Origin: Burkholderiales bacterium
GTDB lineage: Bacteria; Pseudomonadota; Gammaproteobacteria; Burkholderiales; SG8-41
Direction: 5' to 3'
Assembly (NCBI GenBank): GCA_030683105.1
Contig: JAUXMZ010000008.1
Location: forward strand, 4,268 to 68,267
Length of the DNA: 64,000 bases
Part shown: positions 9,575 through 30,311 of the stretch, piece by piece
Layout: each line of letters opens with the position of its first letter
Numbering within the stretch: position 1 is the first letter of the stretch
Notes under the pieces: model-generated
Told to the model about the DNA's origin: nothing
Database searches by the model: none
The model's input: the letters and a program-made list of their open reading frames with translations, nothing else
Translations under genes and position numbers: made by a program

Positions 9575-9591
9575 CAGCAGCGCGCTAATGA

Positions 9592-13731: not shown

Positions 13732-14081
13732 TGGAATTTCTGCTTGCGAGCGCCCTGGGCGTGACCACCGCATGCGGCGTCTATCTGCTGCTGCGGGGAC
13801 GGACTTTCCCCGTGGTGCTGGGATTGTCGCTGCTGTCTTATGCCGTCAACGTATTCATCTTTGCGATGGGGCGGCTCGCGGTGAACGCCCCGCCGGTGAT
13901 CGCCCCGAATGCCGCAACCTACAGCGACCCCCTGCCGCAGGCGCTGGTGCTCACGGCCATCGTCATCGGTTTCGGCATGACCGGCTTCGTCATGGCGCTC
14001 GCGGTGCGGGCGCGCCACGAGACCGGCAGCGACCACGTTGATGGCGCCGCGGCGGCGCACGAGAAGGCGCACGTCCGATGA
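13731..14081 (+). CDS. mrpC: MrpC subunit
   Basis: 116-aa NuoK-like protein. The start overlaps the mrpA stop. Confidence 0.9.
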   Translation: MEFLLASALGVTTACGVYLLLRGRTFPVVLGLSLLSYAVNVFIFAMGRLAVNAPPVIAPNAATYSDPLPQALVLTAIVIGFGMTGFVMALAVRARHETGSDHVDGAAAAHEKAHVR

Positions 14082-15622
14082 ACCACATGGTCATCCTTCC
14101 GGTAGTGCTCCCGGCGCTTGCGGCGGCCCTGATGCTGGCGCTGGGAAAAACGCGCCCGGCCGTGCAGCGAGCAGTCGGCCTTGCCTGCACCGCGCTGCTC
14201 TTCGCCGTTGCGGCAACGCTGCTCGCGCAGGCGCCATCGGACATGCCGCAGGTCTATGCGCTCGGCAACTGGCCGGCCCCGTTCGGCATAGTCATGGTGG
14301 CGGATCGCCTGTCCGCGCTGCTGGTTGCGCTCACCGCGCTGGTCGCACTCGCGGCACTCGCCTACGCCGCACAGGGTTGGGACAACCGCGGCAGGCACTT
14401 TCACGCCCTGTTCCAGTTCCAGTTGATGGGGATAAACGGCGCATTCCTGACCGGGGATCTGTTCAATCTTTTCGTGTTTTTCGAGGTTATGCTGATCGCC
14501 TCTTACGGGCTGTTGCTGCACGGACTGGGCGCGCCGCGCCTGCGCGCCGCGCTGCATTACGTTGTCATTAATCTCGCCGCATCGGCGGTATTCCTGATCG
14601 CGGTGAGCCTGCTCTACGGCGTCACCGGCACGCTCAACATGGCGCACCTGGCGGAACGCGTGGCGCAGGTTCCGCCGGCCGACGTGGCATTGGTCAGAGC
14701 GGCGGGATTGATGCTGCTCGGAGTGTTCGCCGTGAAAGCGGCGCTGTTTCCGCTTTATTTCTGGCTGCCCGCCGCTTATAGCAGCGCCTGCGCGCCGGTC
14801 GCCGCGCTGTTCTCAATCATGACCAAGGTCGGCGTCTACGCCATCATCCGCGTCACCACCCTGATTTTCGGCGGAGACACAGGCGCCGCGGAGCTAACCT
14901 CGCCGTGGCTGCTGCCGGCCGCGCTCGCCACGCTGGTCCTGGCCGCGCTCGGCGCGCTCGGCGCGGAACGCTTCACGGGACTGATCGCCTATCTCACGGT
15001 CGCCTCGGTCGGCACCATGCTTGCCGCGGTAGCGGCCGGCGGCGCCGCCGCGCTTTCCGGAGCGCTGTTCTATCTCGTTCACAGCACGCTCGTCATCGCC
15101 GCGCTTTTCCTGCTGGCGGAACTCCTTGGGCGCCAGCGCGGCATCGCCGCCGATACGCTCCGTGCGGGCCCGGCGCTGCTGCAGCCCGCTCTGCTCGGCC
15201 TGGTCTTCCTGCTGGGCGCTGCCAGCGTTGCGGGCGTGCCCCCTTCTTCGGGCTTTCTCGGCAAGCTGATGATACTGAAAGGCACCCAGGACGCGACGGC
15301 GGTCGCCTGGATCTGGAGCATCCTCCTGGGCGCAAGCCTGATCACGCTGGTAGGCTGCGCGCGCGCAGGCAGCATCCTGCTGTGGAATATCGCCGCGCCG
15401 CAGCCGGCGGCCGATGCGGCCCCGGCCCGGCCCGGTGAATGGCTGCCGCTGGCAACGCTGCTCGCCGGCGCGGTGCTGATGGTGGTGTTTGCCGCCCCTC
15501 TGAAACGCTACGCCGACGCCACCGCTGCGGAACTCCTATCCCGCACCGCCTATATTGCCGCGGTACTCGGGCCCGGACAGGATCGCGCGCCGCGCGCACT
15601 CGGAAAAGGAGGCGGCACATGA
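14078..15622 (+). CDS. mrpD: MrpD subunit
   Basis: 514 aa. Motif YFWLPAAYSSACAPVAALFSIMTK. 4-nt overlaps with both neighbours. Confidence 0.9.
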   Translation: MNHMVILPVVLPALAAALMLALGKTRPAVQRAVGLACTALLFAVAATLLAQAPSDMPQVYALGNWPAPFGIVMVADRLSALLVALTALVALAALAYAAQGWDNRGRHFHALFQFQLMGINGAFLTGDLFNLFVFFEVMLIASYGLLLHGLGAPRLRAALHYVVINLAASAVFLIAVSLLYGVTGTLNMAHLAERVAQVPPADVALVRAAGLMLLGVFAVKAALFPLYFWLPAAYSSACAPVAALFSIMTKVGVYAIIRVTTLIFGGDTGAAELTSPWLLPAALATLVLAALGALGAERFTGLIAYLTVASVGTMLAAVAAGGAAALSGALFYLVHSTLVIAALFLLAELLGRQRGIAADTLRAGPALLQPALLGLVFLLGAASVAGVPPSSGFLGKLMILKGTQDATAVAWIWSILLGASLITLVGCARAGSILLWNIAAPQPAADAAPARPGEWLPLATLLAGAVLMVVFAAPLKRYADATAAELLSRTAYIAAVLGPGQDRAPRALGKGGGT

Positions 15623-16107
15623 AGCGCTGGCTGCCGTTTCCATTACTGTCGGCCGTGCTCGCCGCCGGCTGGCTTGCGCTGGTAGGAGAGGCCTCCATCG
15701 CCCATCTGCTGCTCGGGGGACTGCTGGCGCTGGCGATTCCTCTTGTCGCCGCGCCATTCCTAGATCATCTGCAGCACGTTGTCGCGCCGGGAGCCGCGGT
15801 GCGGCTGCTTTTTCTCCTGATCCGGGACATCGTGCTTGCCAACATTGCGGTCGCGCGCCTGGTGCTCGGCCCGGAAGCCAGGCTGCGGCCGGCGTTCGTT
15901 TCGGTCCCGCTCGCGTTGAGCCACCCGCAATCGATCGCGCTGCTCGCCAGCATCATCACCATGACGCCCGGCACGGTGTCCGCCGATCTGGCTCCCGACC
16001 GCCGCACGCTCCTGGTGCATGCGCTCGATTGCGCCGACCCGGCGCGGCTCGTCGCGGACATCAAACGCCGCTATGAACAACCCCTGCTGGAGATTTTCGG
16101 ATGCTAG
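15619..16107 (+). CDS. mrpE: MrpE subunit
   Basis: Start reassigned to MKRWLPFPLLSAV at 15619 (ATGA overlap with the mrpD stop). The ORF-track start at 15439 lies inside mrpD. Confidence 0.85.
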   Translation: MKRWLPFPLLSAVLAAGWLALVGEASIAHLLLGGLLALAIPLVAAPFLDHLQHVVAPGAAVRLLFLLIRDIVLANIAVARLVLGPEARLRPAFVSVPLALSHPQSIALLASIITMTPGTVSADLAPDRRTLLVHALDCADPARLVADIKRRYEQPLLEIFGC

Positions 16108-16370
16108 CATCTGCCACCAACATCGCCCTCGGCGCCATCGGCCTCGCGTTCGTGCTGTGCCTGCTGCGGCTCGCGCGCGGCCCCAGCGCCGCCGACCGCA
16201 TCCTTGCGCTCGACACGCTCTACATCAATGCCGTGGCGCTGCTGATCGTGCTCGGCATACGCATGGCGAGCACGTTCTACTTCGAAGCGGCGCTGCTGAT
16301 TGCATTGATGGGTTTTGTCGCCACCGTGGCGCTTGCCCGCTACCTCGCTCATGGCAATGTGATGGACTGA
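16101..16370 (+). CDS. mrpF: MrpF subunit
   Basis: 89 aa, three TM. Block RLARGPSAADRILALDTL is typical of MrpF/PhaF. Confidence 0.85.
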   Translation: MLASATNIALGAIGLAFVLCLLRLARGPSAADRILALDTLYINAVALLIVLGIRMASTFYFEAALLIALMGFVATVALARYLAHGNVMD

Positions 16371-16382
16371 GGAGACCGGAAA

Positions 16383-16709
16383 ATGATTATCGAGATCGCG
16401 GTATCGGCGCTGCTGATGGTAGGCAGTTTCTTCATGCTGGTGGGAGCCATAGGCCTCGCGCGCCTGCCGGATTTCTTCATGCGGCTGCATGCGCCGACCA
16501 AAGCCACCACGCTTGGCGTGGGCAGCATGTTGCTCGCGTCGATGCTCTATTCGCTGCAGGACGGACCGAGCCTGCACGAACTACTGATCGTGCTGTTCCT
16601 GTTCCTTACCGCGCCGGTGAGCGCGCATCTGCTGGCGCAAGCGGCGCTTAAGCTCAAACTCAGGTCACGCGCGCCGATGCCCGGGGATTTTCCGCGGCTC
16701 CCGGACTAG
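16383..16709 (+). CDS. mrpG: MrpG subunit
   Basis: 108 aa containing GAIGLARLPDFFMRLHAPTKATTLG. Confidence 0.85.
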   Translation: MIIEIAVSALLMVGSFFMLVGAIGLARLPDFFMRLHAPTKATTLGVGSMLLASMLYSLQDGPSLHELLIVLFLFLTAPVSAHLLAQAALKLKLRSRAPMPGDFPRLPD

Positions 16710-16874: not shown

Positions 16875-17774
16875 TCATTGCCCGGCCGTCATTTTCACCA
16901 CCAGAACATCGCCCCCGGATTCGTGAATGACGTGCATGGCGACGCTACCCAGCAGCATGTAGGACAGCTCGGAGCGCCCCTGCCCCCCGATCGCGATGAG
17001 ATCCGCATCGAAGTCCCGCGCGCACTGCAGGATCACGGCCGGGGCGTAGCCGTGCCGCACGCTGCCTGACAGGGCACGGCCGTTTTCCGGGAGGCTGCGC
17101 AGAAAATCCGCCATGCCGGCCTCGGCCTCCCGGCGGGCAAGGTCCTGATAATGGCGAAAAACATCCTCCGAAACGCCGCTGTAGCGCATCTTGCTCTCGA
17201 ACGGCACCTCGTAGACATGCAGCAGACGGATGTCCGCCGCGGGAAAAAACCGCAATGCCGTCTCCAGCGCATGCCGCGATGTCGGCGAGAAATCCACCGG
17301 CACCAGAACGCGGGAATAATCCTCCAGCGGCTCGCGTTTGACGATCAGGAACGGCCCGCGCCCCTGCCGCACGATTTTCTGCGCGGTCGTGCCGAGCAGC
17401 AGTTCCTGCAGGAAATTTTCCCCATGGGCTCCGATCACGACGAGATCGCATCCCGTGCTTTGCGCATAGGCCGCGACTTCATCGCGCGTGGCGCCGATGC
17501 CGACGTGAAACGCGGCGCTTATGCCGTGCCTGGCGCGGATGCCGGCCGCCATCCCCCCGAGGTCATTGCGCGCGGCATCCACCAGCCGCTGCTCGACCGC
17601 GAGCGGATGTTCGATCAGGATCCGCCTGATGGCTTCCAGAGGCAGCCGGCCCATCACGTGCAACAGGCTGAGTTCCGCACCCCAGGCACGGGCCATTCGC
17701 GCCGCCCGCTCAATTGCCATCCCGGCGCGCGGCGAAAAATCGGTCGCGACGACAATCCGTTTTTTGTCGGTCAT
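16875..17774 (-). CDS. Tandem-domain universal stress protein
   Basis: 299 aa with two USP-like halves (IVVATDFS... and VLVPVDFS...), each ending in a G-x2-G-x9-GS-like block. 4-nt overlap with the Kef-like gene. Confidence 0.85.
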   Translation of the reverse strand: MTDKKRIVVATDFSPRAGMAIERAARMARAWGAELSLLHVMGRLPLEAIRRILIEHPLAVEQRLVDAARNDLGGMAAGIRARHGISAAFHVGIGATRDEVAAYAQSTGCDLVVIGAHGENFLQELLLGTTAQKIVRQGRGPFLIVKREPLEDYSRVLVPVDFSPTSRHALETALRFFPAADIRLLHVYEVPFESKMRYSGVSEDVFRHYQDLARREAEAGMADFLRSLPENGRALSGSVRHGYAPAVILQCARDFDADLIAIGGQGRSELSYMLLGSVAMHVIHESGGDVLVVKMTAGQ

Positions 17775-19444
17775 GGTTGCCTCTTCATGGTTGCCAGATC
17801 ACCCGCTATGGTACGCGCCGCAAAATCCGCGGCGTCGGAGTACGGGGACAGCACGCGGTCCACTCCGGCTGCCGCCAGCGCCCGGCTGTCGCTGTCGGAA
17901 TGCGCGGCCATCGCGACGCGGCCGCCATAGCCGTGATGGCGCAGCGCCTTCAGCAGCGCGAGGTTGATCTCGGCCTGCGGCAGCGTGCTGACGATCCATC
18001 GCAGGCGGCCCAGCGGCAGGGCCTGTGGAAATTCGGGGTCCTCTGCGTCCCCGAAGTTTACCTTGAAGCCCTGGCGGCGGCGCTGCCGCACCGCCTCGGG
18101 ATCGAAATCGACGCCGAGCACGCGCACATCTTGCGCCTGTAACTGCGAAGCCAGCCGAGCCCCGTAGCGCCCGAGCCCGTAAATCACGACGTCCGCCGCA
18201 TCGCTCGCCGCCTGCCGGCGCTCCATGGCAAGTTCGCGAAACGGATTAGCGCGCTCGAAGACATCCAGCCAGCGGGCAATGCGGCCGTACAGCTGATGAG
18301 AGTAAAGAATCAGGTAAGTCGAAAGGGTGATCGTCACCAGCCCCACCAGCGTTACCAGGCCGAGCGTTTCCACGCCGACGTGGCCCAGAGTGATGCCCAT
18401 GGCCACGAAGATTATGGAGAACTCGCTGATCTGGGCGACCGTCAATCCCGCGAGAAAACCGGTGCGCTTGCGATAGCCCATATAGCCCATGATGGCCATG
18501 ACGATCAGGGGATTGCCTATCAGAACGAAAAGGGAAAACGCCCCCGCTGCGGGGAGTTCCTGCCCCAAAGTGGAAAAATCCAGCCTGGACCCCATGTCGA
18601 CAAAGAAAAATAAAAGCAGAAAATCACGAATGCTGACGAGGCGGGTGCTGATCGCCTCGCGATAGGTCGTCGAAGCCAGCGAGAACCCCGCCAGAAACGC
18701 GCCGACTTCCTTGCTGAAACCCAGCACCTCGCCCAGCGCCGCGAAAGCGGTCCCCCAGGCGATGGCGAAAATCAGCAGTAATTCCTGCGAACGGGCGAGC
18801 TGGTGCAACAGCCTCGGCAGAACATAGCGCATCAGCAGGGCAATCACCGCTCCCGCGCCGCCGATCTTCAGCACGAGCAAAGCCGCATTCAGGAGCAGGC
18901 CATGCTCCCCGGAGGCCGCATGTGAGCCTAGCAGCATCATGGCAATGACCACGGCAATGTCCTGCACGATCAGAAAGCCCATGGCGATGCGGCCGTGCAG
19001 CGAATCGATTTCCCGCTTGTCGGACAGGAGTTTGACAATGATGATGGTGCTGGAGAAGGTCAGGGCAACGGCGACATAGAGCGCCTTGACATGCGTCATG
19101 CCGAACGCGATGGCGATCAGGTAGCCGAACACGATCGTAAACGCAAGCTGCCCGAGCCCGGTTGCCAGCGCCACGGGCCCGAGATTCTTCACCAGGTGCA
19201 GGTCGAGCTTGAGTCCGACGACGAACAACAGCACCGTCACGCCGACCTGGGCGAGCAGATCGATCTGGTCGTGCGACTCAACCCATCCCAGCGCTGCCGG
19301 CCCGACCAGGATGCCGGTCATGAGGAATGCGATGATCAGCGGCTGGCGCAGGCGGACGGCGATCACCCCGATAATGGCCGCGATCGCGAGCAGGGCAGCG
19401 AACTGCTGGTAGTTTTCGCTCACGGCCGCCCCCGCCCCCGGCAA
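17771..19444 (-). CDS. Kef-type cation:proton antiporter (CPA2) with a C-terminal KTN/TrkA-N domain
   Basis: 557 aa. About 12 TM segments of Na+/H+-exchanger type, then the Rossmann motif VVIYGLGRYGARLA. Confidence 0.85.
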   Translation of the reverse strand: MPGAGAAVSENYQQFAALLAIAAIIGVIAVRLRQPLIIAFLMTGILVGPAALGWVESHDQIDLLAQVGVTVLLFVVGLKLDLHLVKNLGPVALATGLGQLAFTIVFGYLIAIAFGMTHVKALYVAVALTFSSTIIIVKLLSDKREIDSLHGRIAMGFLIVQDIAVVIAMMLLGSHAASGEHGLLLNAALLVLKIGGAGAVIALLMRYVLPRLLHQLARSQELLLIFAIAWGTAFAALGEVLGFSKEVGAFLAGFSLASTTYREAISTRLVSIRDFLLLFFFVDMGSRLDFSTLGQELPAAGAFSLFVLIGNPLIVMAIMGYMGYRKRTGFLAGLTVAQISEFSIIFVAMGITLGHVGVETLGLVTLVGLVTITLSTYLILYSHQLYGRIARWLDVFERANPFRELAMERRQAASDAADVVIYGLGRYGARLASQLQAQDVRVLGVDFDPEAVRQRRRQGFKVNFGDAEDPEFPQALPLGRLRWIVSTLPQAEINLALLKALRHHGYGGRVAMAAHSDSDSRALAAAGVDRVLSPYSDAADFAARTIAGDLATMKRQP

Positions 19445-19450
19445 ATCCGG

Positions 19451-20044
19451 TCATGAAAGCAGACCAGCATCCCGCCCTCTCACGCTTGCGACCAGCGACA
19501 ACAGTTCCGGTTCGGAGAAAAATCCGCCGCATCCGGCGTGCGCGTCCGAGGATATTTTCCAGCCCGTCGGGCTACGGTGCACGGTGGCAACGCAATGCGC
19601 CGTGCATTGCCCGAGAGCGGTGAGATCGAGCCGGATCCATTCACGTTCGCTGACGCGATCGCTGATATGACAAGACGCGCCACGGATCCCGCTGAAAGCA
19701 CGGCCCGTGGCGCTGGCCACGACAAAAGCAATCGTGGAAACCGCCGCCGGCAGCGCCTCCAGGAAAACGAAAATCCTTTCATCATCCCACTCGCTCGCCC
19801 CCGTTCGCGCGTCGCCGGTATGGATGACGCTGCCATTGGCGTTGCGCGGGCGGCCGGGATGAATGATCTCCAGCGCGCGGCGTTGCCCGTCGTACAGCAC
19901 GCACAGCGCATCCAGGTTCGCGGGATTGGCGGACCCTCCCTCTTGCGGCGGGTCCCAGTGCAAACCCATGACGATCTCTTTCAGATCGAGTGCCGCATCG
20001 GCGTACACGTGATCCCGCGGGTTCGCATGATCATTGATTCCCAT
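19451..20044 (-). CDS. TerD-domain stress protein
   Basis: GLHWDPP and DLDALCVLYD blocks are typical of TerD. Start set at MGINDHANP (GGAGGAG upstream). ATG at 20047 or the ORF-track start at 20062 are alternatives. Confidence 0.75.
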   Translation of the reverse strand: MGINDHANPRDHVYADAALDLKEIVMGLHWDPPQEGGSANPANLDALCVLYDGQRRALEIIHPGRPRNANGSVIHTGDARTGASEWDDERIFVFLEALPAAVSTIAFVVASATGRAFSGIRGASCHISDRVSEREWIRLDLTALGQCTAHCVATVHRSPTGWKISSDAHAGCGGFFSEPELLSLVASVRGRDAGLLS

Positions 20045-20206
20045 CATTTCTCCTCCACACAACCATGTCAGACCGTAAATTGCTCTCCGGCATACCAGCT
20101 TGGGGACTGCTTATGCCGGCCCTCAAGTCCTTCGTCACCAGCGAACCGAAGGGGACGCTAGCCGCCTTGGCCATCTTACCGCATCGAGCCGCCGCACTTC
20201 GGGCAC

Positions 20207-20758
20207 TCAAGAGGAGTTCGAGCCTTGACCAGTATCCCTCCGGGTTCGCCAGCGCCGCCAGGTATGCCAACGCCAAATCAGGTCGATCAACAGGTAGGTC
20301 AGGAAACCAGCGAAACAAGCCATCACAAACAGACCGACCAGCAACGGCTTCCCCAAGGCAGCGATACGCTGCACTATCGTCTTTTCGGAAACAGCGCTGG
20401 CGGAAGTCGCCGGATCATCCGACGGCAATGAAGTTTCGCCGGTAATCCAGCTTCCCAACTGGAAAGCGGCGTAATAGAGCGGTCCGAAAGTTACCGGATT
20501 CGAAATCAGCGTACTCGCGGCAGCAGCGGGTAGATTCGCCCGCAGGACAATAGCGGCTGCGGCGGTCAGGGGAATTTGTGCCAGCGGAATCAGCAGTCCG
20601 AAAAACACTCCGATTGCAACGCCCAAGGCGACACCGCGCCGAGACCAGCGCCACAGTTTTGGATGTTCCATCCAAACTGACAACCACCGCAGCCACCGGC
20701 TGGTCAAGAGAGCCTCTCGACTCGGGATCAGGCTGCGCAACCGCTCCGGCCAGCTCAC
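20207..20758 (-). CDS. DUF2062-family membrane protein
   Basis: 183 aa. Block RGVALGVAIGVFFGLLIPLAQIPLTAAAAIVLRANLPAA matches my memory of DUF2062. GTG start forms a GTGA overlap with the diguanylate cyclase stop. Confidence 0.65.
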   Translation of the reverse strand: MSWPERLRSLIPSREALLTSRWLRWLSVWMEHPKLWRWSRRGVALGVAIGVFFGLLIPLAQIPLTAAAAIVLRANLPAAAASTLISNPVTFGPLYYAAFQLGSWITGETSLPSDDPATSASAVSEKTIVQRIAALGKPLLVGLFVMACFAGFLTYLLIDLIWRWHTWRRWRTRRDTGQGSNSS

Positions 20759-21627
20759 GATTCCGCCCCCGAAAATGTGCGCTGCTGAACGCGATTACGG
20801 CCGCCGTTCTTCGCTTCGTACATCAGGGCATCGGCTTGCGCCAGAGCGCTGTCGAAATCGTGTGGCGCAAAATCATAGCTGGCAACGCCGATACTGAATG
20901 TCACGGGCCAGCACTGTTCGCGCATCGCGGCAAGCAGCCTTTGCCTGAGCTTTTCGGCGTAGGACATGGCGGATGACGCATTCATGTCCGGCAACAGCAG
21001 GGCGAACTCGTCGCCGCCCAGTCGTCCGGGTACGTCGCTCTCGCGCACGTGCGACCGTATCACCTGGGCGACCGTCACCAGCAATTGGTCGCCGGCGTCA
21101 TGTCCCAGTTCATCGTTGATCTCCTTGAACTTGTCGATGTCAATGAACACCGCTGTAACCGGCACGGCCTGTCGCCGTGCCTGAGAAAAGGCGCGCCTGC
21201 CGCGCTCATGGAATTCTCGGCGGTTGGGCAATTGCGTCAGGGAGTCCTCGCTCGCCAGCTGCGTCACGCGTTGCAATACGCGCCGCATTTCACCCAGCAG
21301 CCAGGCGCCGCCAAGAAAGATCGCCAGCCGCATGCCGCTATTGAACAGCAACGGAAAGGGATCGGCTTGCTCGGCCGCAAGTATGCGGTCAGCAATAAAC
21401 CACACCACGGCGGCCAGCAGCGCGAGACCATAGCCGGCACGCGCGCCGAGAAACCAGGCGACGAGCAGTACAGGCAGAATGAACAGTACATGGAATTCGT
21501 AGGCCAGGCCGGTCAGCGTGTGCAGGTACCCGATGCCCAACGCGAGTGCTGCGGAACCCGCAAGAATGCCCGTGCGCGCCGACACGCCGGGTTGCCATTG
21601 CCATAACATTACTTCTTTAACCTTCAT
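20755..21627 (-). CDS. Membrane-anchored diguanylate cyclase (GGDEF domain)
   Basis: 290 aa. About five N-terminal TM helices, then a GGDEF domain with GRLGGDEFALLL. ATGA overlap with the last MrpD-like gene of locus 3. Confidence 0.9.
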   Translation of the reverse strand: MKVKEVMLWQWQPGVSARTGILAGSAALALGIGYLHTLTGLAYEFHVLFILPVLLVAWFLGARAGYGLALLAAVVWFIADRILAAEQADPFPLLFNSGMRLAIFLGGAWLLGEMRRVLQRVTQLASEDSLTQLPNRREFHERGRRAFSQARRQAVPVTAVFIDIDKFKEINDELGHDAGDQLLVTVAQVIRSHVRESDVPGRLGGDEFALLLPDMNASSAMSYAEKLRQRLLAAMREQCWPVTFSIGVASYDFAPHDFDSALAQADALMYEAKNGGRNRVQQRTFSGAES

Positions 21628-23135
21628 GGCATCGCTCCGACATACTCGCGCCCGGCGATGAGTTGCGCCCAGGCAAGCGGGCTGACTTCGGTGTCGGCGA
21701 AGATGCCGGCCGCCAGTGTCGCCGCAGCGGTCACCAGCGGCGGCAGCAGCAGCAGCCAGGCGGTTTCACGCCAGCCGTGGGCCGGTATGTGCTCGCCGGA
21801 CCAGGCCACCGGCGCTTGGTGAAACCAGGCGCGCCAAAGGATGGGCAGAAAATAGACGGCATTGAGCAGGCTGGAAGTCCACAGCACCCAGATCGCCCAC
21901 TCCATGCCGGCAGTCTGCGCGCCGTCGGAAAGCCAGGCCTTGCTGACGGCGCCGGCGGTGAGCGGCACCCCCATCATGCTCAGCGCGGCGATCGAGAAGG
22001 CCACGGTGGTGAGCGGCATGCGTCGCCCCGCGCCATCCATTTCGCTCACCTTGTGGATGCCCAGGGTCTCGGCGTAGTTCCCAGCGCAAAAGAACAGCGT
22101 GATCTTCATGATGCCCTGATGCACCAGGTGCACCAACCCTCCAACAGTGCCGATGGGGCCGAACAGGGCCACACCGAGCACGATGTAGGACACCTGGCTG
22201 ACAGTGGAATAGGCGAGTCGCCTCTTGAGGTCATCCTGGAACAGCGCGCGCAGGCTGCCCCAGATAATGGTGACGGCGGCGACCACGGCGAGCGGCGCCA
22301 GCAGTTCGAGCGACTGGGCGAACTCGACGCCATAGACCTCGTAGACGATGCGGGCGATGCCGAAGGCGCCGGCCTTGACCACGGCGACCGCGTGCAACAG
22401 GGCGGACACCGGCGCCGGCGCCACCATGGCCTGGGGCAGCCAGCCGTGCAGCGGCACCAGCGCCGCCTTGACGCCGACGCCGGCGATCAGCAGCAAAAAG
22501 ATTAACTGGAGCTGTCCCGCATGCGCCTGGCCGAGGGACGCGACAAAGCCGCCGTGGGCGAAATCCGCCTGACCGGCCAGGCTGTGCAGCCAGACGATGC
22601 CGGTCAGCAGCAAGGCCCCGCCGCCTAGCGTGTAGGCCAGGTAGATCGTGCCGCCCTTCATCGCCTGATTGGTGCCGCGATGCACCACCAGCGGGAAGGT
22701 GGACAGCGTCAGCAACTCATAGAACACGAAGAAGGTGAACAGGTTGCCGGCCATGGCAATGCCCATGGTCGCGGTGACGCACAGGCTGAAAAAGCCGAAG
22801 AAACGGCTGCGGCGCGGCGCGCCTTCCAGGTAGCCGATCGCATAGAGCGTCGTCAACAGCCAGAGGATGGCCGACAGGGTGATGAACAGCAGCCCCAGCG
22901 CATCTGCTTTGAAGACGAGATCGAGGCCGGGCAGGACCGCATAGCGGACGCCGTAGTCCTCGCCGGCATGCACGCCGGCGAGCAGGATGCCGACGAGCAC
23001 GAGCTTCGCCACGGCGCCGAGCAGGTTGAGCGTCGTGCGCGTACCGATCCAGGTCTCCGGCAGGATGAAGATGACCAGGCCGGGCAGGAGCGACGAGGCC
23101 AGCACCGCAAGCGGCAGGGCTTCGTTGATCGTCAC
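21624..23135 (-). CDS. MrpD-like antiporter subunit (locus 3, second copy)
   Basis: Motif HGWLPQAMVAPAPVSALLHAVAVVKAG. Start reassigned to GTG at 23135 (VTINEALPLAVL; GTGA overlap). The 724-aa ORF-track extension overlaps the upstream gene. Confidence 0.85.
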   Translation of the reverse strand: MTINEALPLAVLASSLLPGLVIFILPETWIGTRTTLNLLGAVAKLVLVGILLAGVHAGEDYGVRYAVLPGLDLVFKADALGLLFITLSAILWLLTTLYAIGYLEGAPRRSRFFGFFSLCVTATMGIAMAGNLFTFFVFYELLTLSTFPLVVHRGTNQAMKGGTIYLAYTLGGGALLLTGIVWLHSLAGQADFAHGGFVASLGQAHAGQLQLIFLLLIAGVGVKAALVPLHGWLPQAMVAPAPVSALLHAVAVVKAGAFGIARIVYEVYGVEFAQSLELLAPLAVVAAVTIIWGSLRALFQDDLKRRLAYSTVSQVSYIVLGVALFGPIGTVGGLVHLVHQGIMKITLFFCAGNYAETLGIHKVSEMDGAGRRMPLTTVAFSIAALSMMGVPLTAGAVSKAWLSDGAQTAGMEWAIWVLWTSSLLNAVYFLPILWRAWFHQAPVAWSGEHIPAHGWRETAWLLLLPPLVTAAATLAAGIFADTEVSPLAWAQLIAGREYVGAMP

Positions 23136-24568
23136 GAGGCGCCTCCCATGGCCGGCACGCCCAGCAGTTGCATCAACTCGACACCGCGCAGACCGAGCAG
23201 CACGCTGGCGGCGGCAAGCAGCAAGGCCATCCATTCCAGCATGCGCGGTACCGGCCGTACATCGCCTACCGGCGCAAGCAGGAAGGCCTGGCGCAGCACG
23301 CGGAACACATACACGGCCGCCAGCAGGCCGCCCGCAAGCGCCGCGACCGCGATGATCCAGTGTCCCTGCGCCAGCGCCGCCTCGATCAACTGCCACTTGG
23401 CCAGAAAGCCTGCCGAGGGCGGCAGCCCCATGAGCGTGATGCCGGCCAGACCAAAGGCGAACAGCGTCAGAGGCAGCTGCTGCGCCGCACCGGCGAGGCC
23501 TTCGACCGTATCCTGGCCGGTGGCCTCGATGAGCACGCCCGCCGCGGCGAACATCGCGGCCTTGGCCAGTCCATGCGCGTACGCCTGCATGATGCCGGCC
23601 TGCAAGGCCCCCTCGGTAGGCAACAGCGGAAAGATCAGGAACAGGTAGCCCAGTTGCGCTACGGTCGAGTACGCCACCAGCATCTTGATACGCCGGGCGC
23701 AGATCGCCTGGTACGAACCCCAGAATATCGCCGCCGCGCCCAGCAGCGCCGGCAGCCAGGCGATGATCCCGGCAAGCGGGGCAAAGGGCCCAAGCCACAG
23801 ACGCAGGATCAGGTAGAACGACGCCTTGACCACGAGGGCGGAAAGCAGCGCCGAAACCGGCGCCGGCGCCCCGCCGTGGGCGGGCGGCAGCCAGAAGTGG
23901 AAGGGAAACAGCGCGGTCTTGAGCATCAGGCCCGCCAGCATCAAACCGCCGGCCAGCCTGACGACGTCCGGTGCTTCGGCTGTCACCAGAGGCAGCAATG
24001 TCGGGATGGACACCGTGCCGTAGGCGCCGTAGATCAGCGCCACGCCCAGCAGATAGGCGCCGGAGCCCAGCAGCGTGGCAAACAGGTAACGCAACGCGGC
24101 GGTAATCTGCTTTGCTCCGCCGCCGGCGGCGACCAGGCCCACGGCTGCGAGCCCGACCAGTTCGAGCGTGACGTAGAGGTTGAAGAGGTCGGCCGAGAGA
24201 AACAGGGCATTGAGGCCGGCAATCAGGAAGCCGGCCAGTGGCCAGAAATAGCGGGCTTCCGCCGCATATGACGCAAAATAGGTCCGCGCGTAGATCGCCA
24301 GCGGCAAGACGACGACTTGCGTCAGCAGCAACATCGCGACGGAAAGACCATCGGCTGCGAGGTCGATCCCCAGCGGCGCCCCCCAGCCGCCGATGGCATG
24401 CGCACCGGCGCCGGAATCGTTCAAACCGGCGGCCAGTTGCAAGGCAAGCAGAAGTTGCACGGCGAGGCCTGCAATTGCCGGTCGTGCGCCGCGCCCAGGA
24501 CCGAGCAGGAAAGCGAAGCAGGCCCAGGCGAGCGGCAGCACGATCAGCCAGACCATGGGATCAATCAT
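23132..24568 (-). CDS. MrpD-like antiporter subunit (locus 3, first copy)
   Basis: 478 aa. Motif HFWLPPAHGGAPAPVSALLSALVVKAS. Confidence 0.9.
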   Translation of the reverse strand: MIDPMVWLIVLPLAWACFAFLLGPGRGARPAIAGLAVQLLLALQLAAGLNDSGAGAHAIGGWGAPLGIDLAADGLSVAMLLLTQVVVLPLAIYARTYFASYAAEARYFWPLAGFLIAGLNALFLSADLFNLYVTLELVGLAAVGLVAAGGGAKQITAALRYLFATLLGSGAYLLGVALIYGAYGTVSIPTLLPLVTAEAPDVVRLAGGLMLAGLMLKTALFPFHFWLPPAHGGAPAPVSALLSALVVKASFYLILRLWLGPFAPLAGIIAWLPALLGAAAIFWGSYQAICARRIKMLVAYSTVAQLGYLFLIFPLLPTEGALQAGIMQAYAHGLAKAAMFAAAGVLIEATGQDTVEGLAGAAQQLPLTLFAFGLAGITLMGLPPSAGFLAKWQLIEAALAQGHWIIAVAALAGGLLAAVYVFRVLRQAFLLAPVGDVRPVPRMLEWMALLLAAASVLLGLRGVELMQLLGVPAMGGAS

Positions 24569-24863
24569 CGTCCGCCACGGGCAACTCCATTTTCCCCGTC
24601 AGCCCATGAAAACGGCGTACCAGGCCCAGCGCGAGCGCGGTGGCCGCGACGGCGACGACGATGCCGGTCAGCACCATCGCCTGCGGCACCGGATCGGCTG
24701 CGTCGCTGCGCTGGGCCAGGCCGACGAGGACAAGAAACGCCCCGCTTCCCATCAGGTTGAAGGCGAGTATGCGGCGCAGCAGGTGGTCGATAAGCAGCAC
24801 GCCGGCGACGCCCATGGCGAACAGGGCGGCGCCGGCAAACGCGAAGATCAGACCGCTGGTCAT
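24561..24863 (-). CDS. MrpC/MnhC (NuoK-like) subunit, locus 3
   Basis: 100 aa, three TM, in the position between the B and D subunits. Confidence 0.8.
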   Translation of the reverse strand: MTSGLIFAFAGAALFAMGVAGVLLIDHLLRRILAFNLMGSGAFLVLVGLAQRSDAADPVPQAMVLTGIVVAVAATALALGLVRRFHGLTGKMELPVADDD

Positions 24864-25516
24864 GATTCGCCTCCGTCGTCATCCGACAGGAACAGGAACA
24901 AACCGGCAAGAATGAGCCCCAGCGAGATGGTGAGCCCGGACTCGATCAGGAGGATCAGCGCGCCGGCATGGGCCGGCGGATAGCGCAGCAAACCGCCTTC
25001 GATCAGCAACACCGCCGCGACGGCGAGGAAGACCAGAAATCCGCCTGACAAACCCCAGCGCAGGCGGACCCTGGGCTGCCTCCACCCGGGCATCAATCCG
25101 GTCAGGTGCAGCAACACCGCCGATGCGGCCAGTACGGCGCCCGCCTGAAAGGCCCCGCCGGGCCGGAATGCGCCGGCCCAGAGCAGGTAGATTGCAACGA
25201 TCGCCATCAGCGGTGCGGCGATCCGCGCCAGCATTTGCAGCAAGGGATCCATCGGTCCGACGGCGCCGCTTTCCCGTTGATTGCCGACAGCCAGAATACC
25301 CAGCAGGGCGAGCAGCAGTACGGCGATTTCGAGCAGGGTGTCGTAGGCGCGGAAATTCAGCAGCACCGCCGTGACGGGGTGTTCAACGCCGCTGGCCGCG
25401 AGATTTGCCGCCACCGACGGGCGCAGGTCGATCGCGGCGGGCCCCAGATCGCCCATGGCTGCGAGCAGCGCGACGATGAAAGCCAGGGCGGCGCCCACGA
25501 CGGCGATGCGCTTCAT
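24860..25516 (-). CDS. MrpB/MnhB subunit (full length), locus 3
   Basis: Start reassigned to MKRIAVVGAALAF at 25516. Contains VTAVLLNFRAYDTLLEIAVLL and RPGGAFQAGAVLA. Confidence 0.8.
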   Translation of the reverse strand: MKRIAVVGAALAFIVALLAAMGDLGPAAIDLRPSVAANLAASGVEHPVTAVLLNFRAYDTLLEIAVLLLALLGILAVGNQRESGAVGPMDPLLQMLARIAAPLMAIVAIYLLWAGAFRPGGAFQAGAVLAASAVLLHLTGLMPGWRQPRVRLRWGLSGGFLVFLAVAAVLLIEGGLLRYPPAHAGALILLIESGLTISLGLILAGLFLFLSDDDGGES

Positions 25517-25779
25517 TTCTTCGCCTCCGTTCCCGCACCGCGTCGTCGCAGCGCGCCGTAGGCATCGAGCAGCAGGGCGCCGGTCAACCCGGCGCCGATG
25601 GCGGCCTCGGCCAGGCCGAGGTCCGGCGCCGAGAGCCGCGCCCACGCCAGGGCCATCAGCAGGCCGAAAGCGATGAACAGCACAATGGCCCGGTCGAGCC
25701 GGGGTGTCGTGAGCGCGCCCCAGCAACTCCACAGCAGGCTTGCGGCGAGCAACAGGTCGAAAGCGAGGCCTACATTCAT
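25513..25779 (-). CDS. DUF4040 (MbhD-like) subunit, locus 3
   Basis: 88 aa containing DLGLAEAAIGAGLTGALLL. 4-nt overlaps on both sides. Confidence 0.7.
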   Translation of the reverse strand: MNVGLAFDLLLAASLLWSCWGALTTPRLDRAIVLFIAFGLLMALAWARLSAPDLGLAEAAIGAGLTGALLLDAYGALRRRGAGTEAKK

Positions 25780-26078
25780 GTATCTTCCCGCCGCCAGGGT
25801 CGGATGCCCAGCGCGTCCGCGCGGCGGGCGATGGCATAGCTGATGCCGGCGCTGGCCGCCAGCGCCAGCGGCCAGATCAACAACAGTTTCAAGGCTACGG
25901 CCAAACTTTCCGCCTGCAGGGCCAATCCCAGCACTATGCAGCCGAGCCCCAGGTTGTCGGCTTTTGCCAGGGCATGCAGCCGGCTGTAGACATCAGGAAA
26001 GCGCAGCAGCCCGACGGTGCCGGAAAAATAGAAAAAAGCGCCCATGCAAAGCAGCACGATGCTGGCGATCTCAATCAT
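25776..26078 (-). CDS. MrpG/MnhG subunit, locus 3
   Basis: Start reassigned to MIEIASIVLLCMG at 26078. Contains GTVGLLRFPDVYSRLHALAKADNLG. Confidence 0.8.
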   Translation of the reverse strand: MIEIASIVLLCMGAFFYFSGTVGLLRFPDVYSRLHALAKADNLGLGCIVLGLALQAESLAVALKLLLIWPLALAASAGISYAIARRADALGIRPWRREDT

Positions 26079-26346
26079 GTGGCTTCTTCTCCCCGGCATG
26101 CCAGGCACGCCCGGCAAAGGCGACGCCGGTGATTGCGGCGAGCAACGCGAGAACCAGCGCGACATCGACGAGTTCATGTCCGGCGCCGGCATGGGCCAGC
26201 AGCACGAGGATGCCCACGCCCGTGCTGCCGAACAGCAGCGCCACCAGCATGCGGTCGGCGGCGGTTGGCCCGCGCGCGGCGGCCAGCAGCGCGACGATCA
26301 GATTGACCAGCAGAAACAGGGCGAGCGGAAATTCGATACCGGTCAT
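26071..26346 (-). CDS. MrpF/MnhF subunit, locus 3
   Basis: 91 aa, three TM, containing AARGPTAADRMLVALLFG. Confidence 0.8.
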   Translation of the reverse strand: MTGIEFPLALFLLVNLIVALLAAARGPTAADRMLVALLFGSTGVGILVLLAHAGAGHELVDVALVLALLAAITGVAFAGRAWHAGEKKPHD

Positions 26347-26813
26347 GGCTGCTCTCTGAATATCACCTCAATCCGGGCTTCCAGCGCCCGAACCGCCACC
26401 GCAATGGGCATGCGCGCATCGAGGACGTGCAGGCGCAGCCGATCCCCTTCGAGCCGCACGCCGAGAGAGCCGGGCATCAGCCCGAGCGCGTTGACCATGA
26501 GGATGCGCGCTGCGCCGGACCGGAGGGACAACTGCATCTCCAGCATATCCGGCTGCAGCGCCTGGCGTCCGCGCAATGCGATCAGCGCCACTTGCGCCCC
26601 GCCGCGCACCGAATTCCAGATGAAATACCCCATAAAAGCGAACAGGCCGGCTACGCTGATCCGCCCCGATGCCGGCAGCAACAGGCGGACGCTTGCCCAT
26701 AGCGCAACGGCGACCGCGATCGCGCCGAGCCCCCAACTTCCCGCGCGACCCTCGGACAAGATCCACCACAGCAGCGCGAACAGGATGCCGCGCCTCAGAA
26801 GCGCAGCGGTCAT
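26343..26813 (-). CDS. MrpE/MnhE subunit, locus 3
   Basis: 156 aa. N-terminal TM pair then a soluble domain. First gene of the locus. Confidence 0.75.
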   Translation of the reverse strand: MTAALLRRGILFALLWWILSEGRAGSWGLGAIAVAVALWASVRLLLPASGRISVAGLFAFMGYFIWNSVRGGAQVALIALRGRQALQPDMLEMQLSLRSGAARILMVNALGLMPGSLGVRLEGDRLRLHVLDARMPIAVAVRALEARIEVIFREQP

Positions 26814-26856: not shown

Positions 26857-27389
26857 TCAATGTAAGCCGCCTGCCGCTAACTCTGCTCTTTCATACCGTC
26901 CGGCCCGTGACTGAACCGGATGCGTTCGGGCGCGCTGGTTCCCCCCTGTCATGACGAAACTCATCGCTTCCTCTATGGTCCAGTCGGTTTGCACGACATC
27001 GGAAAGCGGCACGATCTCGATGTAGCCCGAAGTCGGATTCGGCGAGGTCGGCACATAGACGACGGCGAGTTCCCGCCCGGTCGTCTCGTCATGCATGATC
27101 TTGGTGACAAAGCCGACCGCCTTCATTTCCGGCGTCGGAAAACTGTCTGGAAAGCCGAATCCAACAGCCAGGACGACAGGGTTTCGGAGACCGGCGCGAC
27201 CAGACGGGCGGCGGCGCGCAACAACGTCGTGCCGGCGCCGGCGAGAATGCCAAGCAGAAAATCAAATACCAGCCAGGTCACCCACAGGGGGGCGACCGTG
27301 AAGAACCCAATCAGAATGTGGCGCGCGAAATGGCGCTTGCCCGGTGCATTGCCCGGCGGAGTATCTTTTTTTCCCCTTCCAGTGTTCAT
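26857..27389 (-). pseudogene. DUF502-family membrane protein, split into two ORFs (27123-27389 and 26857-27126) and lacking the central region
   Basis: The N-terminal ORF has the DUF502 TM1 block (ILIGFFTVAPLWVTWLVFDFLL). The C-terminal ORF has GFVT...VYVPTSPNPTSGYIEIVP. The two are in different frames with an ATGA junction. The usual middle segment of about 40-80 aa is missing. Confidence 0.5.
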
Positions 27390-27581: not shown

Positions 27582-30311
27582 CTAGGCGTGTCCAAGCCGC
27601 CTGCGCAACAGCCATTTTTCGCCTTCCACTATAAAGAAGATCAATATTGCACACAGGATGACGCGCAGCCACGCGGCAGCGTCGATGTCTCCGGTGCCGA
27701 ACCACGCCTGCATGATGCCGGCGTAGCTGAACAGCAATTGCAGCGGCAGCAGCACCGCGATCGCAATCAACACATAGCGGTTGCCGAAGAATCCCTGCCG
27801 GGAAAGCACCGAGGCATATATGTAGCGGCTGTTGAACAGATAGACCATTTCCCCTACTACCAGCATGTTGACGGCGACGGTGCGCGCCGCCTCGATCGTC
27901 ATTCCCCGCTCCAGCTCCCACAGGAACAACCCGAAGCACGCGGCCACCAGCAGCACCGAAACGAGGACGATGCGCCAGACCAGGAAGCCGGACAACAGCG
28001 GCTCGCCGGGCGCGCGCGGAGGACGCCGCATCACCTCCCCCTCAGGCGGCTCGAAGGCAATGGCGAGCGACAGCGTTACCGCGGTAACCATGTTGACCCA
28101 CAGGATCTGCACAGCCGTAATCGGCAGCGCCAGACCCAGGAGAATCGCGATGAGGATCACCCCCGCCTCGCCGCCGTTGGTCGGCAGGATGAACAGGATC
28201 GCCTTCTTCAGGTTGTCGTAGATGGTGCGGCCCTCTTCGACGGCATGCGCGATGGAGGCGAAATTGTCGTCGGCGAGCACCATTTCCGCCGCCTCCTTCG
28301 CCGCCTCGGTTCCCTTCAATCCCATCGCCACGCCGACATCGGCACGCTTGAGCGCCGGCGCGTCGTTGACGCCATCCCCGGTCATCGCCACGATTTCACC
28401 TTGCGCCTGCAGCGCCTGCACCAGGCGCAGCTTGTGCTCGGGGCTGGCGCGCGCGAACACGTCGGTACGTGCCGCCGCATCCCTCAACTGCGCATCGTCC
28501 ATGTGCTCGAGGTCGGCGCCGGAGAGCGCGGCCGCGCCGTCGCCGATGCCGAGTTGCGCGCCGATCGCGCGCGCCGTGATCACATGATCCCCGGTGATCA
28601 TCTTGACGCGAATGCCGGCGGCGCGGCACAGTCCGATCGCCCTGATCGCCTCCTCGCGCGGCGGATCGATGATGCCGACCACGCCGAGCAGCGTCAGGCC
28701 CTGCTCAACGTCGGCAAAACGCAGTTCGCGCCGCCCGTCCTCGCAGGCCCGGAACGCGAGGGCCAGCACGCGTTGCCCCGCCGCCGCCAGCCGCTCGATG
28801 TGCTTGTGCCAGTTTGCCAGATTGAGCGGATGATCGCTGCCGCCGCGGCGTTCCCGGCTGCACATGTCGAGCACGCGTTCCGGCGCGCCCTTGACGTACA
28901 CAAACCCGTGGCCGGCATGGTCGTGGTGCAGCGTGGCCATGAAGCGATGCTCGGACTCGAACGGGATGGAATCGATTCTCGGCAGCGCTTTGGACTCGGA
29001 TTCCGCGTCCAGGCCCGCCTTGAGCGCGAGGGTGAGCAGCGCGCCTTCGGTGGGATCTCCTTCCATGTGCCAGACACCACCCTGCTCGCGCAAGGTGGCA
29101 TCGTTGCACAAAAGCGCTGCGCGCGCGACCTCGGCGAGAGCGGCATCCTCCTGGGGCAGCACGTCGGAACCGCCGCGGCTGAAACCGCCTTCAGGCGCGT
29201 AGCCTGCGCCGCTCACCTCGCAGGCATCGTCCCCCGTCACCACGCTCTGCACGGTCATCTCGTTGCGGGTCAGCGTGCCGGTCTTGTCGGAGCAGATCAC
29301 CGTTACCGAGCCCAGCGTTTCCACCGCCGGCAGGCGCCGGATGATGGCGCTGCGTTGCGCCATGCGCTGCACGCCGATCGCTAGTGTGATGGTCATGATC
29401 GCCGGCAACCCTTCGGGTATCGCTGCCACCGCCAGCCCGACCACCGCCATGAACATCTCGGTGGCGGAATAGTCGCGCAGCAGCACGCCGAAAGCGAAGG
29501 TCGCCGCCGAAAAACCGATGACTGCGAGCGTCAGCCAGCGCCCGAACTGCTCCATTTTGCGCAGCAGCGGGGTCGTTACCTGCTCGACTTGTCCGATCAG
29601 CGTGCTGATGCGCCCGATCTCGGTCGCCTGCCCGGTCGCCGCCACCACACCCCGCCCCTGGCCATAGGTGACCAGGGTGCCGGAGTAAGCCATGCAAAAA
29701 CGGTCGCCCAGCACGGCTTCGGCCGCGACCGGCGCCGGCGTTTTCTCCACCGGCTGTGATTCGCCGGTCAGCGCCGCCTCCTCCACACGCAACGATTTGG
29801 TTTCCAGCAGCCGCACATCGGCTGGCACCTTGTCTCCGGATGCGAGCAGCACGATATCTCCCGGCACCAGTTCCTCTGCCGCGATCTCGTGTCGCGCGCC
29901 GTCACGCATTACCAGCGCGTGCGGTGACAGCATGCTACGGATGGCTTCGAGGGCTTTTTCGGCCTTGCCCTCCTGGATAAAGCCGATCACCGCGTTGATG
30001 ATCACCACGCCTGCAATCACACCCGTGTCGACCCAATGCCCGAGCGCGGCGGTAACCAGCGCCGCGGCAAGCAGCACGTAGATCAATGCGTTGTGGAATT
30101 GCAGCAGAAATCGCGCCAGCGGCCCGCGCCGCTGTGGCGGCTTGAGGCGGTTTGGTCCGTAGACTTCGAGACGGCGCCGTACCTCGGGTTCGCCCAGGCC
30201 GCTTTCCGTGACATCGAGCCTGTCCAGAATTTCGTTTCGGGGCAGCGCATGCCACGCCACGGCCTGTTGTCGTTCATCCATCCTGGTAACGGAGCGGGTA
30301 TTCATTTGCAA
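27582..30311 (-). CDS. P2-type cation-transporting P-type ATPase
   Basis: 909 aa. Motifs [26 protein letters not shown] and PEGLP in TM4. Confidence 0.9.

Follow-up and report, generated by a model that had tools for sequence, protein, structure and literature searches.

Recurrent adjacency of a membrane diguanylate cyclase gene and a group 3 Mrp antiporter operon in groundwater and wetland bacteria points to a possible link between Mrp and c-di-GMP

Why should a gene whose predicted product synthesizes cyclic di-GMP (c-di-GMP) overlap the last gene of an operon for a monovalent cation/proton antiporter? The question is raised by a 64,000-nucleotide stretch of DNA (the window) from a Burkholderiales bacterium (GenBank assembly GCA_030683105.1, contig JAUXMZ010000008.1, positions 4,268 to 68,267 of the forward strand), in which one of several Mrp-like clusters, locus 3, runs directly into a gene for a membrane-anchored diguanylate cyclase (DGC) and from there into a gene for a DUF2062 membrane protein. 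An earlier reading made from the sequence alone (the sequence-only reading) had proposed that a c-di-GMP synthase is hard-wired into the operon of an ion-translocating complex. We find that the adjacency recurs in related groundwater and wetland bacteria, and this gene-order evidence points to a Mrp/c-di-GMP link. The reading that we favour, at a rough probability of 55%, is that an accessory DGC has been grafted onto a group 3 Mrp operon, tying c-di-GMP output to the ionic/alkaline stress response.

The genes of locus 3 and its surroundings (Table 1) were called from an open reading frame (ORF) listing and translation together with Pfam and NCBIfam profile searches, and these agree with the sequence-only reading that thirteen genes, from mrpE to the tandem universal stress protein (USP) gene, lie on one strand. 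From mrpE (26813) to the DUF2062 gene (20207) ten of them follow one another with zero intergenic space and only 4-nt (ATGA or GTGA) or 8-nt overlaps, and so have the marks of an operon: one strand, no gaps, and stop codons that overlap start codons. The ATGA at 21624-21627 is common to the mrpD2 stop and the DGC start, and the GTGA at 20755-20758 to the DGC stop and the DUF2062 start; both overlaps had been described before and were re-derived at these positions. The DGC would thus be co-expressed with the Mrp genes and is probably translationally coupled to them.

What do the Mrp genes of locus 3 encode? All seven Mrp/CPA3 subunit modules (A-N, A-C, B, C, D, E, F, G) were found by Pfam in the one cluster, in the order E-F-G-MbhD-MbhE/B-C-D1-D2. 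Group 3 Mrp clusters are defined by the presence of every subunit, irregular order and, typically, two mrpD genes (PMC5703873), and locus 3 has each of these features. The best solved relative of MrpD1 is Bacillus pseudofirmus MrpD (7qru_D, 3.1e-50), while those of MrpD2, whose orthologs are 503-505 residues long, are subunit H of MBS and of MBH, followed by a mix of NdhF, NuoL, ND5, MrpD and MrpA. Because of these H-type relatives and its Proton_antipo_N match, we read MrpD2 as the equivalent of the MrpA N-terminal antiporter module (NuoL/MbhH type), while the MbhD-like gene appears to substitute for part of the MrpA C-terminal module and the MbhE/MnhB-like gene for the remainder of it plus MrpB. 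The cluster contains no redox module, and locus 3 is therefore, by gene content, a Mrp-type (CPA3) monovalent cation/proton antiporter; a respiratory Mbh/Mbx-type complex is ruled out by the lack of hydrogenase or redox module genes in the cluster.

To what extent is the mrpD2-DGC adjacency kept in relatives? A scan with an alignment of the whole DGC returned generic GGDEF paralogs only (at most 39% identity), and these were reused as an 80-locus control. A scan with the membrane-domain alignment gave 55 metagenome ortholog loci, to which five contig look-ups added eight (63 loci, L081-L143); neighbours were annotated by phmmer with the window proteins, and clustering of the DGCs at 95% identity gave 41 clusters. 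In 18 of the 41 clusters the gene directly upstream of the DGC is an mrpD2 ortholog, joined to it by the 4-nt overlap seen in the window, and where the contig is long enough the full E-F-G-MbhD-B-C-D1-D2 set is present (e.g., L083, L087, L088, L104, L124, L128 and L131). In 3/41 clusters the DGC ends a group 2 Mrp operon instead, as mrpA'CDEFG-DUF502-DGC (L081), -USP-DGC (L095) or -P-type ATPase-DGC (L093). Within 10 kb of the 80 control loci a Mrp-like gene, a USP gene, a DUF2062 gene and a DUF502 gene were each found once. A Fisher test of 21/41 against 1/80 gives p = 2.8e-11, a value that overstates the significance because the ortholog clusters are not phylogenetically independent. The chance juxtaposition that the sequence-only reading had allowed for, should the adjacency be absent from all related genomes, does not fit these counts. 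In a neighbour-joining tree of the DGCs the mrpD2 context is spread across several clades, and the other members of the clade of the window DGC have moved to other ion-transport contexts; the adjacency persists down to 52-61% DGC identity.

Two variants of the junction were seen among these loci. At L115:5463-10004 three consecutive antiporter-like genes (D1-D2-D2') precede the DGC, whose start is GTGA rather than ATGA, and at L142:593-1423 and L143:2448-3281 a DGC ortholog apparently in two fragments with an in-frame stop, a probable pseudogene, follows mrpD2.

The converse question is whether this Mrp type always carries the DGC. MrpD2 is far more conserved and widespread than the DGC: identity is 80-90% in its best 120 matches, among whose sources are Thiorhodococcus, a Desulfoarculaceae metagenome-assembled genome (MAG) and Comamonadaceae. 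Since identity is so high across these lineages, recent horizontal spread of this Mrp type among Betaproteobacteria, the purple sulfur gammaproteobacterium Thiorhodococcus and the Desulfoarculaceae MAG is suggested. Four MrpD2 matches were looked up for a DGC neighbour. It is absent in Thiorhodococcus (L148), where a convergent USP-Kef pair and a P-type ATPase gene are found, in the Desulfoarculaceae MAG (L149), where a PQ-loop gene comes after mrpD2, and in Comamonadaceae (L150/L151), which have 299 nt where the 87% identical L083 has a 942-nt DGC segment; it is present in L152/L153. In this last match mrpD1 and mrpD2 are separated by an inserted Na/Ca exchanger gene (L152, L153:6904-8004), which overlaps mrpD2 by 4 nt, and the DGC is still the final gene of the operon. 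The Comamonadaceae comparison amounts to a presence/absence polymorphism at one site between mrpD2 and gcvT (L083:9965-10906 versus L150:6269-6567, flanks 81-87% identical). Losses on the other side were seen when L110, L117-L120, L122 and L141 were compared with L104: six independent wetland contigs retain a USP gene, ~305 bp from the 3' end of mrpD2, the DGC and DUF2062, the rest of the mrp operon being lost, and in one contig mrpE runs straight into the final ~260 bp of mrpD2 and the DGC. The mrpD2 3' end kept in both types of deletion might hold DGC expression signals. Because close mrpD2 orthologs occur without it, the DGC is best described, from these gene neighbourhoods, as an accessory cassette at the mrpD2 3' end and not a core subunit, neither needed by nor strictly dependent on Mrp. 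The proposal of a c-di-GMP synthase in an ion-transporter operon thus gains from the recurrent adjacency, but "hard-wired" was too strong, given mrpD2 orthologs of at least 80% identity that have no DGC.

Such mobility could also mean that there is no functional link at all, and that an accessory gene has landed repeatedly in a fast-rearranging stress island, the overlap being inherited from one ancestral insertion. The presence/absence polymorphism at an identical site, the heavy shuffling of the island among relatives and the relatedness of the clusters, whose counts are not independent, all agree with this, and the ATGA at the DGC start is itself partly due to the conserved Met-Lys/Asn/Arg N-terminus of the protein. 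We nonetheless consider this explanation very unlikely. DGCs away from mrpD2 still adjoin cation transporter or USP/CBS stress genes and not random ones: in several other clusters the upstream gene or genes are for NhaA and a P-type ATPase (L089), a Na/Ca exchanger (L129), a Na/Pi cotransporter (L133), MgtC (L098), CBS proteins (L086, L096), USP (L138) or carbonic anhydrase with Kef-USP downstream (L112). In addition, the DGC occurs with two different Mrp architectures, its adjacency to mrpD2 reaches several clades and low identities (above), and generic GGDEF genes show a Mrp-like neighbour at only one control locus in 80.

The DGC itself consists of a four-helix transmembrane (TM) DUF4118-like domain plus stalk helix (residues 1-125; 21253-21627) and a GGDEF domain (residues 126-279; 20791-21252). 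The latter passes the model cut-offs of Pfam PF00990 (151.3 bits versus 23.8) and TIGR00254 (156.8 bits versus 37.4); no NCBIfam equivalog model is reached by the protein, the GGDEF domain model alone passing. The GGDEF motif (residues 204-208; 21004-21018) is intact, as is a product-feedback I-site, RESD (residues 195-198; 21034-21045), five residues upstream of it. The GGDEF motif and the I-site residues R195 and D198 are invariant in an alignment of 25 orthologs, as are D163, D165, K168, N171, D180, R202, K273 and R277; the sequence-only reading had named the integrity of active site and I-site as a check. We take D163, D165, K168, N171, D180, R202, K273 and R277 to correspond to metal- and GTP-binding positions of PleD. 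A search of 5.8 billion proteins shows a tight betaproteobacterial family of ~283 residues and 60-75% identity over full length, with named sources among MAGs of Gallionella, Sideroxydans, Sulfuricella, Azonexus and Rhodocyclaceae. The AlphaFold (AF2) model (predicted local distance difference test, pLDDT, 86.7) has four TM helices, a stalk and a canonical GGDEF fold, and a Foldseek search with the whole model matched WspR, PleD and SiaD via the GGDEF domain only. An active-type, product-inhibited cyclase is the best-supported reading of these features, and the protein is predicted to form dimers. The opposite view, that the GGDEF domain has no catalytic activity and modulates the antiporter as a receptor for c-di-GMP or GTP, draws on the I-site, through which the protein could bind c-di-GMP; with the GGDEF signature and the metal-/GTP-binding-type residues invariant in all 25 orthologs, and a fold that matches active DGCs, we find it barely credible.

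What might control such a cyclase? In the AF2 model the TM helices (residues 15-39, 42-60, 62-87 and 90-~112) are joined by loops of 1-2 residues, and the fourth extends as a long stalk helix. Within the membrane the polar residues H36, Y43, H46, D80, N96 and R100 are invariant in the 25 orthologs and E44 is more than 90% conserved. By the positive-inside rule the N-terminus is probably cytoplasmic, and the invariant polar residues would therefore sit in the outer-leaflet half of the bundle. DUF4118-type domains are the type found in KdpD. A profile of the DGC membrane domain found 3,598 representative proteins at E <= 1e-3; among 60 of these relatives that were checked the outputs are GGDEF (50), HisKA/HATPase (7-8) and SpoIIE (1), and 14 of the 60 match Pfam DUF4118 (best 7.7e-09). 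The window DGC scores 11.7 bits against DUF4118 (PF13493; E = 0.23), below the gathering score of 28.4, while one ortholog covers the whole model at 15.3 bits (E = 0.017); the profile had no significant match among Protein Data Bank sequences. Because its relatives bear such diverse outputs, the domain is a modular input domain, by its profile matches a divergent one of DUF4118 type and not a formal member of that family.

A domain of this shape could read the antiporter directly: translational coupling to mrpD2 would place the DGC beside the newly made antiporter, and its four-helix bundle would dock laterally on the terminal antiporter-like subunit, so that cyclase activity reports the conformation or turnover of the antiporter and not a free ionic cue. 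The gene overlap with this last, peripheral subunit, kept in 18 clusters, would suit a DGC that is a physical partner of Mrp, as would the fact that in deletion variants the DGC is always accompanied by the final 260-305 bp of mrpD2. The TM domain is, moreover, essentially without extramembrane loops, so that sensing would have to be intramembrane, and its outer-leaflet polar residues are invariant. Against this, the DGC family has no single partner (it also follows DUF502, USP, P-type ATPase, Na/Ca exchanger and Na/Pi cotransporter genes), variants without any intact mrp gene keep the DGC, and mrpD2 orthologs more than 80% identical lack it. We therefore regard physical partnership as unlikely.

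The favoured reading, an accessory DGC that ties c-di-GMP to ionic or alkaline stress through co-expression, can be set out as follows. Given the overlap of its start codon with the stop codon of mrpD2, the cyclase would be made only with, and in proportion to, expression of the antiporter operon under ionic/alkaline stress. The four-helix membrane domain, the sole input module and one that has no periplasmic loop, would then set cyclase activity, with H36, E44, H46, D80, N96 and R100 probably reading membrane-proximal pH, Na+/K+ or membrane potential. The fourth TM helix and its stalk would relay this cue to the GGDEF domain, whose RxxD I-site would limit output by product feedback, and the c-di-GMP made would couple cation/pH homeostasis to c-di-GMP-controlled behaviour. 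Gene content, overlaps, intact catalytic and I-site residues and a conserved, specific neighbourhood are what the sequences show; co-transcription, the cue sensed and the downstream targets are the steps of this mechanism that we infer.

Several observations weigh against it. The window was assembled from a groundwater metagenome with DNA-type runs only. A wastewater run labelled as a metatranscriptome (X26) holds a contig of 2,108 nt that spans the mrpD2/DGC junction in a relative of ~93% identity, beginning 104 nt inside mrpD2, crossing the DGC and extending 1.2 kb beyond, at a depth of ~1,190 versus ~1,170-1,355 on the mrp contigs; unrelated genes upstream are covered to a comparable depth, a flat, DNA-like profile for which DNA carry-over is possible. 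A further run (X22, type not stated) gave short, low-depth contigs. Co-transcription from mrpE to DUF2062, which we consider plausible, accordingly rests on the overlaps between genes and on how these are conserved. Near the locus we recognised no c-di-GMP effector, and the DUF4118 score of the window DGC is below threshold (above). Finally, this Mrp type can do without the DGC, which is missing beside close mrpD2 orthologs in three lineages, and since the deletion variants keep the DGC after mrp loss it can presumably work without Mrp.

If no dedicated effector is recognised, could c-di-GMP act on the neighbouring transport genes? Downstream of DUF2062 lie the genes for a TerD-domain protein, a Kef-type CPA2 antiporter with a KTN domain and a tandem USP, and the coordinates and Pfam matches confirm the 6-nt TerD-Kef gap and the 4-nt overlap (ATGA at 17771-17774, common to the Kef stop and the USP start) that had been described. 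The Kef protein has clear Na_H_Exchanger (172.7 bits) and TrkA_N (69.9 bits) domains and does not reach the NCBIfam equivalog cut-offs for KefC, KefB or YbaL. Both USP domains carry the G-2x-G-9x-G[ST] nucleotide-binding motif (residues 115 and 263) of the UspFG/MJ0577 type. In one scheme, c-di-GMP would bind the tandem USP, Kef or Mrp and regulate cation/proton transport locally, as c-di-AMP does in Firmicutes. Kef-USP pairs do recur at some ten loci, placed upstream, downstream or convergently (near the DGC in L081, L091, L093, L104, L106, L112, L114, L116 and L124, and in L148, which has no DGC), and by analogy with the Staphylococcus aureus KdpD USP domain, which binds c-di-AMP (PMC4686210), Kef-USP is a candidate c-di-GMP receptor; KdpD also bears a DUF4118 membrane domain, a distant relative of the DGC input domain. 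On the other hand, this Mrp type has Kef-USP and a P-type ATPase beside it even where the DGC is missing (Thiorhodococcus), none of the known c-di-GMP-binding domains or motifs was identified, and the motif in the USP is the one for ATP binding in general. We hold this scheme to be distinctly improbable. The same doubt attaches to its fullest form, in which c-di-GMP directly regulates monovalent cation/proton transport, the DGC sensing periplasmic pH, Na+/K+ or antiporter state and its product gating Kef/Mrp via the tandem USP.

The remaining companion genes vary more in their attachment to the DGC. DUF2062 (PF09835; 137.6 bits against a gathering score of 27.4) forms a tight ortholog family and lies close behind the DGC in at least nine clusters, about a quarter: with a 4-nt overlap in L087, L124 and L128, at gaps of 3-53 nt in L094, L106, the L104 cluster (L107/L109/L110), L113 and L126, and at 159 nt in L111; it is farther downstream in L081, L095 and L127. 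Its orthologs elsewhere adjoin an Ion_trans channel gene or a Na/Pi cotransporter gene, and from these neighbours we take it to accompany ion transporters in general. Three DUF2062 orthologs that are 63-67% identical and have no DGC neighbour (L146, L147:9148-10558 and L144:8117-10540) lie beside an Ion_trans (voltage-gated-type) channel gene. The AF2 model of DUF2062 is of low confidence (pLDDT 68, predicted template modelling score 0.40), and the literature searched mentions the domain only in a Brucella effector or in annotation lists. TerD was found in none of the 63 ortholog loci, being present in the window only, and is a lineage-specific addition. Upstream of mrpE the window has a disrupted DUF502 gene that, in tblastn comparison with the L081, L123 and L124 proteins, lacks ~68 residues and changes frame, a probable pseudogene or assembly error; intact DUF502 is the first operon gene in relatives and precedes mrpE in L115, L123, L124 and L141. 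DUF2062, DUF502, Kef-USP, the Na/Pi cotransporter and the P-type ATPase are, as far as their recurrence among these loci shows, shuffled members of one ion-homeostasis neighbourhood.

The DUF2062-TerD spacer had been given as 144 bp with an 8-bp-stem hairpin. That length holds if TerD begins at the TTG at 20062; the likelier start is the ATG at 20047, which has GGAGGAG upstream, and this gives 159 nt. The hairpin (20087-20119) is present, with a loop of 17 nt. It lacks a T-tail and was not called as a terminator, and the spacer shows no folding advantage over shuffled sequence (z = -0.62); we therefore rejected hairpin and spacer as a terminator or regulatory RNA. A sigma-70 promoter scan found 3 sites versus 1.7 expected, none of them within the mrpD2 3' end, the sole minus-strand site overlapping the TerD start; the scan is no evidence for or against an internal promoter.

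Locus 3 lies in a region of the window (~3-37 kb) that, from its gene content, is an ion/osmotic-stress island. Between 27582 and 37205 it encodes the P-type cation ATPase, cytochrome c, a ferric-reductase-like flavoprotein, a USP, NfeD and MscS, and the trio of ATPase, cytochrome c and ferric reductase likewise lies upstream of the mrp operon in L083. Two further Mrp clusters are present on the other side of locus 3 (Table 1); the assignment of the apparent group 2 cluster is based on a MrpA-length ORF, ORF sizes and a phmmer match to MrpG at 16383-16709.

Table 1. Features of locus 3 and of its surroundings in the window.
Feature	Position	Strand	Evidence and remarks
P-type cation ATPase	27582-30311	minus	upstream of locus 3
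Disrupted DUF502 gene	26857-27389	minus	overlapping ORFs 27123-27389 and 26857-27126; Pfam DUF502 on C-terminal half
mrpE (MrpE/MnhE subunit)	26343-26813	minus	Pfam MNHE 3.6e-23; ATGA overlap with mrpF
mrpF (MrpF subunit)	26071-26346	minus	Pfam MrpF_PhaF 5.8e-06; 8-nt overlap with mrpG
mrpG (MrpG subunit)	25776-26078	minus	Pfam PhaG_MnhG_YufB 2.5e-24; 4-nt overlap with MbhD-like gene
MbhD-like small subunit	25513-25779	minus	Pfam MbhD 1.2e-16; NCBIfam DUF4040 1.9e-12, below model cut-off
MbhE/MnhB-like subunit	24860-25516	minus	Pfam MnhB 3.9e-12 and weak MbhE; NCBIfam antiporter subunit B models below cut-offs
mrpC (NuoK-like)	24561-24863	minus	Pfam Oxidored_q2 1.8e-17
mrpD1	23132-24568	minus	Pfam Proton_antipo_M 3.5e-54
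mrpD2 (last Mrp gene)	21624-23135	minus	Pfam Proton_antipo_M 5.4e-53 and Proton_antipo_N; GTG start overlaps D1 stop
Diguanylate cyclase (DGC), 290 residues	20755-21627	minus	Pfam GGDEF 2.6e-44
DUF2062 membrane protein	20207-20758	minus	Pfam DUF2062 3.9e-40; GTG start overlaps DGC stop
DUF2062-TerD spacer, with 8-bp hairpin 20087-20119	20048-20206	minus	
TerD-domain protein	19451-20047	minus	Pfam TerD 8.1e-22
Kef-type CPA2 cation/proton antiporter, C-terminal KTN	17771-19444	minus	Pfam Na_H_Exchanger 1.3e-50 and TrkA_N 2.9e-19
Tandem universal stress protein (USP)	16875-17774	minus	Pfam Usp, two domains, 1e-52
Apparent group 2 Mrp cluster	10909-16709	plus	MrpA' (940 residues), then C-D-E-F-G; converges on USP gene
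Second Mbh-order Mrp cluster	3384-10681	minus	E-F-G-MbhD/E-B-C-D-D-84 residues-D-like; then TRAP dctPQ, no DGC

How does this arrangement compare with known systems? The group 3 cluster mrpCD1D2EFGAB of the cyanobacterium Aphanothece halophytica (PMC5703873) is alike in having all Mrp modules, two mrpD-type genes, small split A/B subunits and an irregular order, and the EFG-A'B-C-D1-D2 order found here is a circular permutation of its C-D1-D2-E-F-G-A-B; locus 3 differs in its Mbh/Mbs-arm order, in being betaproteobacterial and in the DGC (often with DUF2062) appended to its last gene, nothing like which is described for such clusters. The E-F-G-MbhD-MbhE/B-C-D order is also that of the Pyrococcus MBH/MBS arm (MbhA-H; 6cfw, 6u8y), to whose subunit H MrpD2 is nearest, but locus 3 has a second antiporter-like subunit in place of hydrogenase or sulfane-reductase genes. 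With KdpD (PMC4686210) the system shares a DUF4118-type four-TM input domain with minimal loops, a link to monovalent cations, a USP and a cyclic dinucleotide. It is unlike KdpD in that the GGDEF output makes the dinucleotide whereas KdpD is regulated by one, in that this is c-di-GMP here and c-di-AMP there, and in that the USP is a separate protein coupled to Kef and the DUF4118 match is below threshold. Finally, DgcN/YfiN, SiaD, WspR and AdrA are likewise operon-embedded, with an active-type GGDEF domain and I-site, a predicted dimer and a stalk helix; they have other input domains, and as operon partner an ion antiporter here takes the place of an exopolysaccharide or chemosensory system.

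Both Mrp operons and membrane DGCs embedded in operons are well known; their conserved coupling appears new. The sequence-only reading had been aware of no described Mrp/c-di-GMP link, and the literature that we searched for Mrp together with diguanylate cyclase, c-di-GMP or GGDEF likewise gave unrelated co-mentions only.

c-di-GMP is usually discussed for motility, biofilm and the cell cycle, and second-messenger control of K+/Na+/H+ homeostasis is established c-di-AMP territory; to our knowledge Betaproteobacteria largely lack c-di-AMP. Were direct regulation of transport, which we doubt (above), to prove true, it would be a c-di-GMP counterpart of the Firmicutes c-di-AMP/KdpD-USP/CpaA circuit. 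The divergent DUF4118-like domain, DUF2062 and DUF502 gain a genomic context from these comparisons, all of them being found repeatedly beside ion transporters. The favoured reading, an accessory DGC grafted onto a group 3 Mrp operon, would provide a testable entry point of ionic/alkaline stress into c-di-GMP in abundant iron- and sulfur-cycling Betaproteobacteria.

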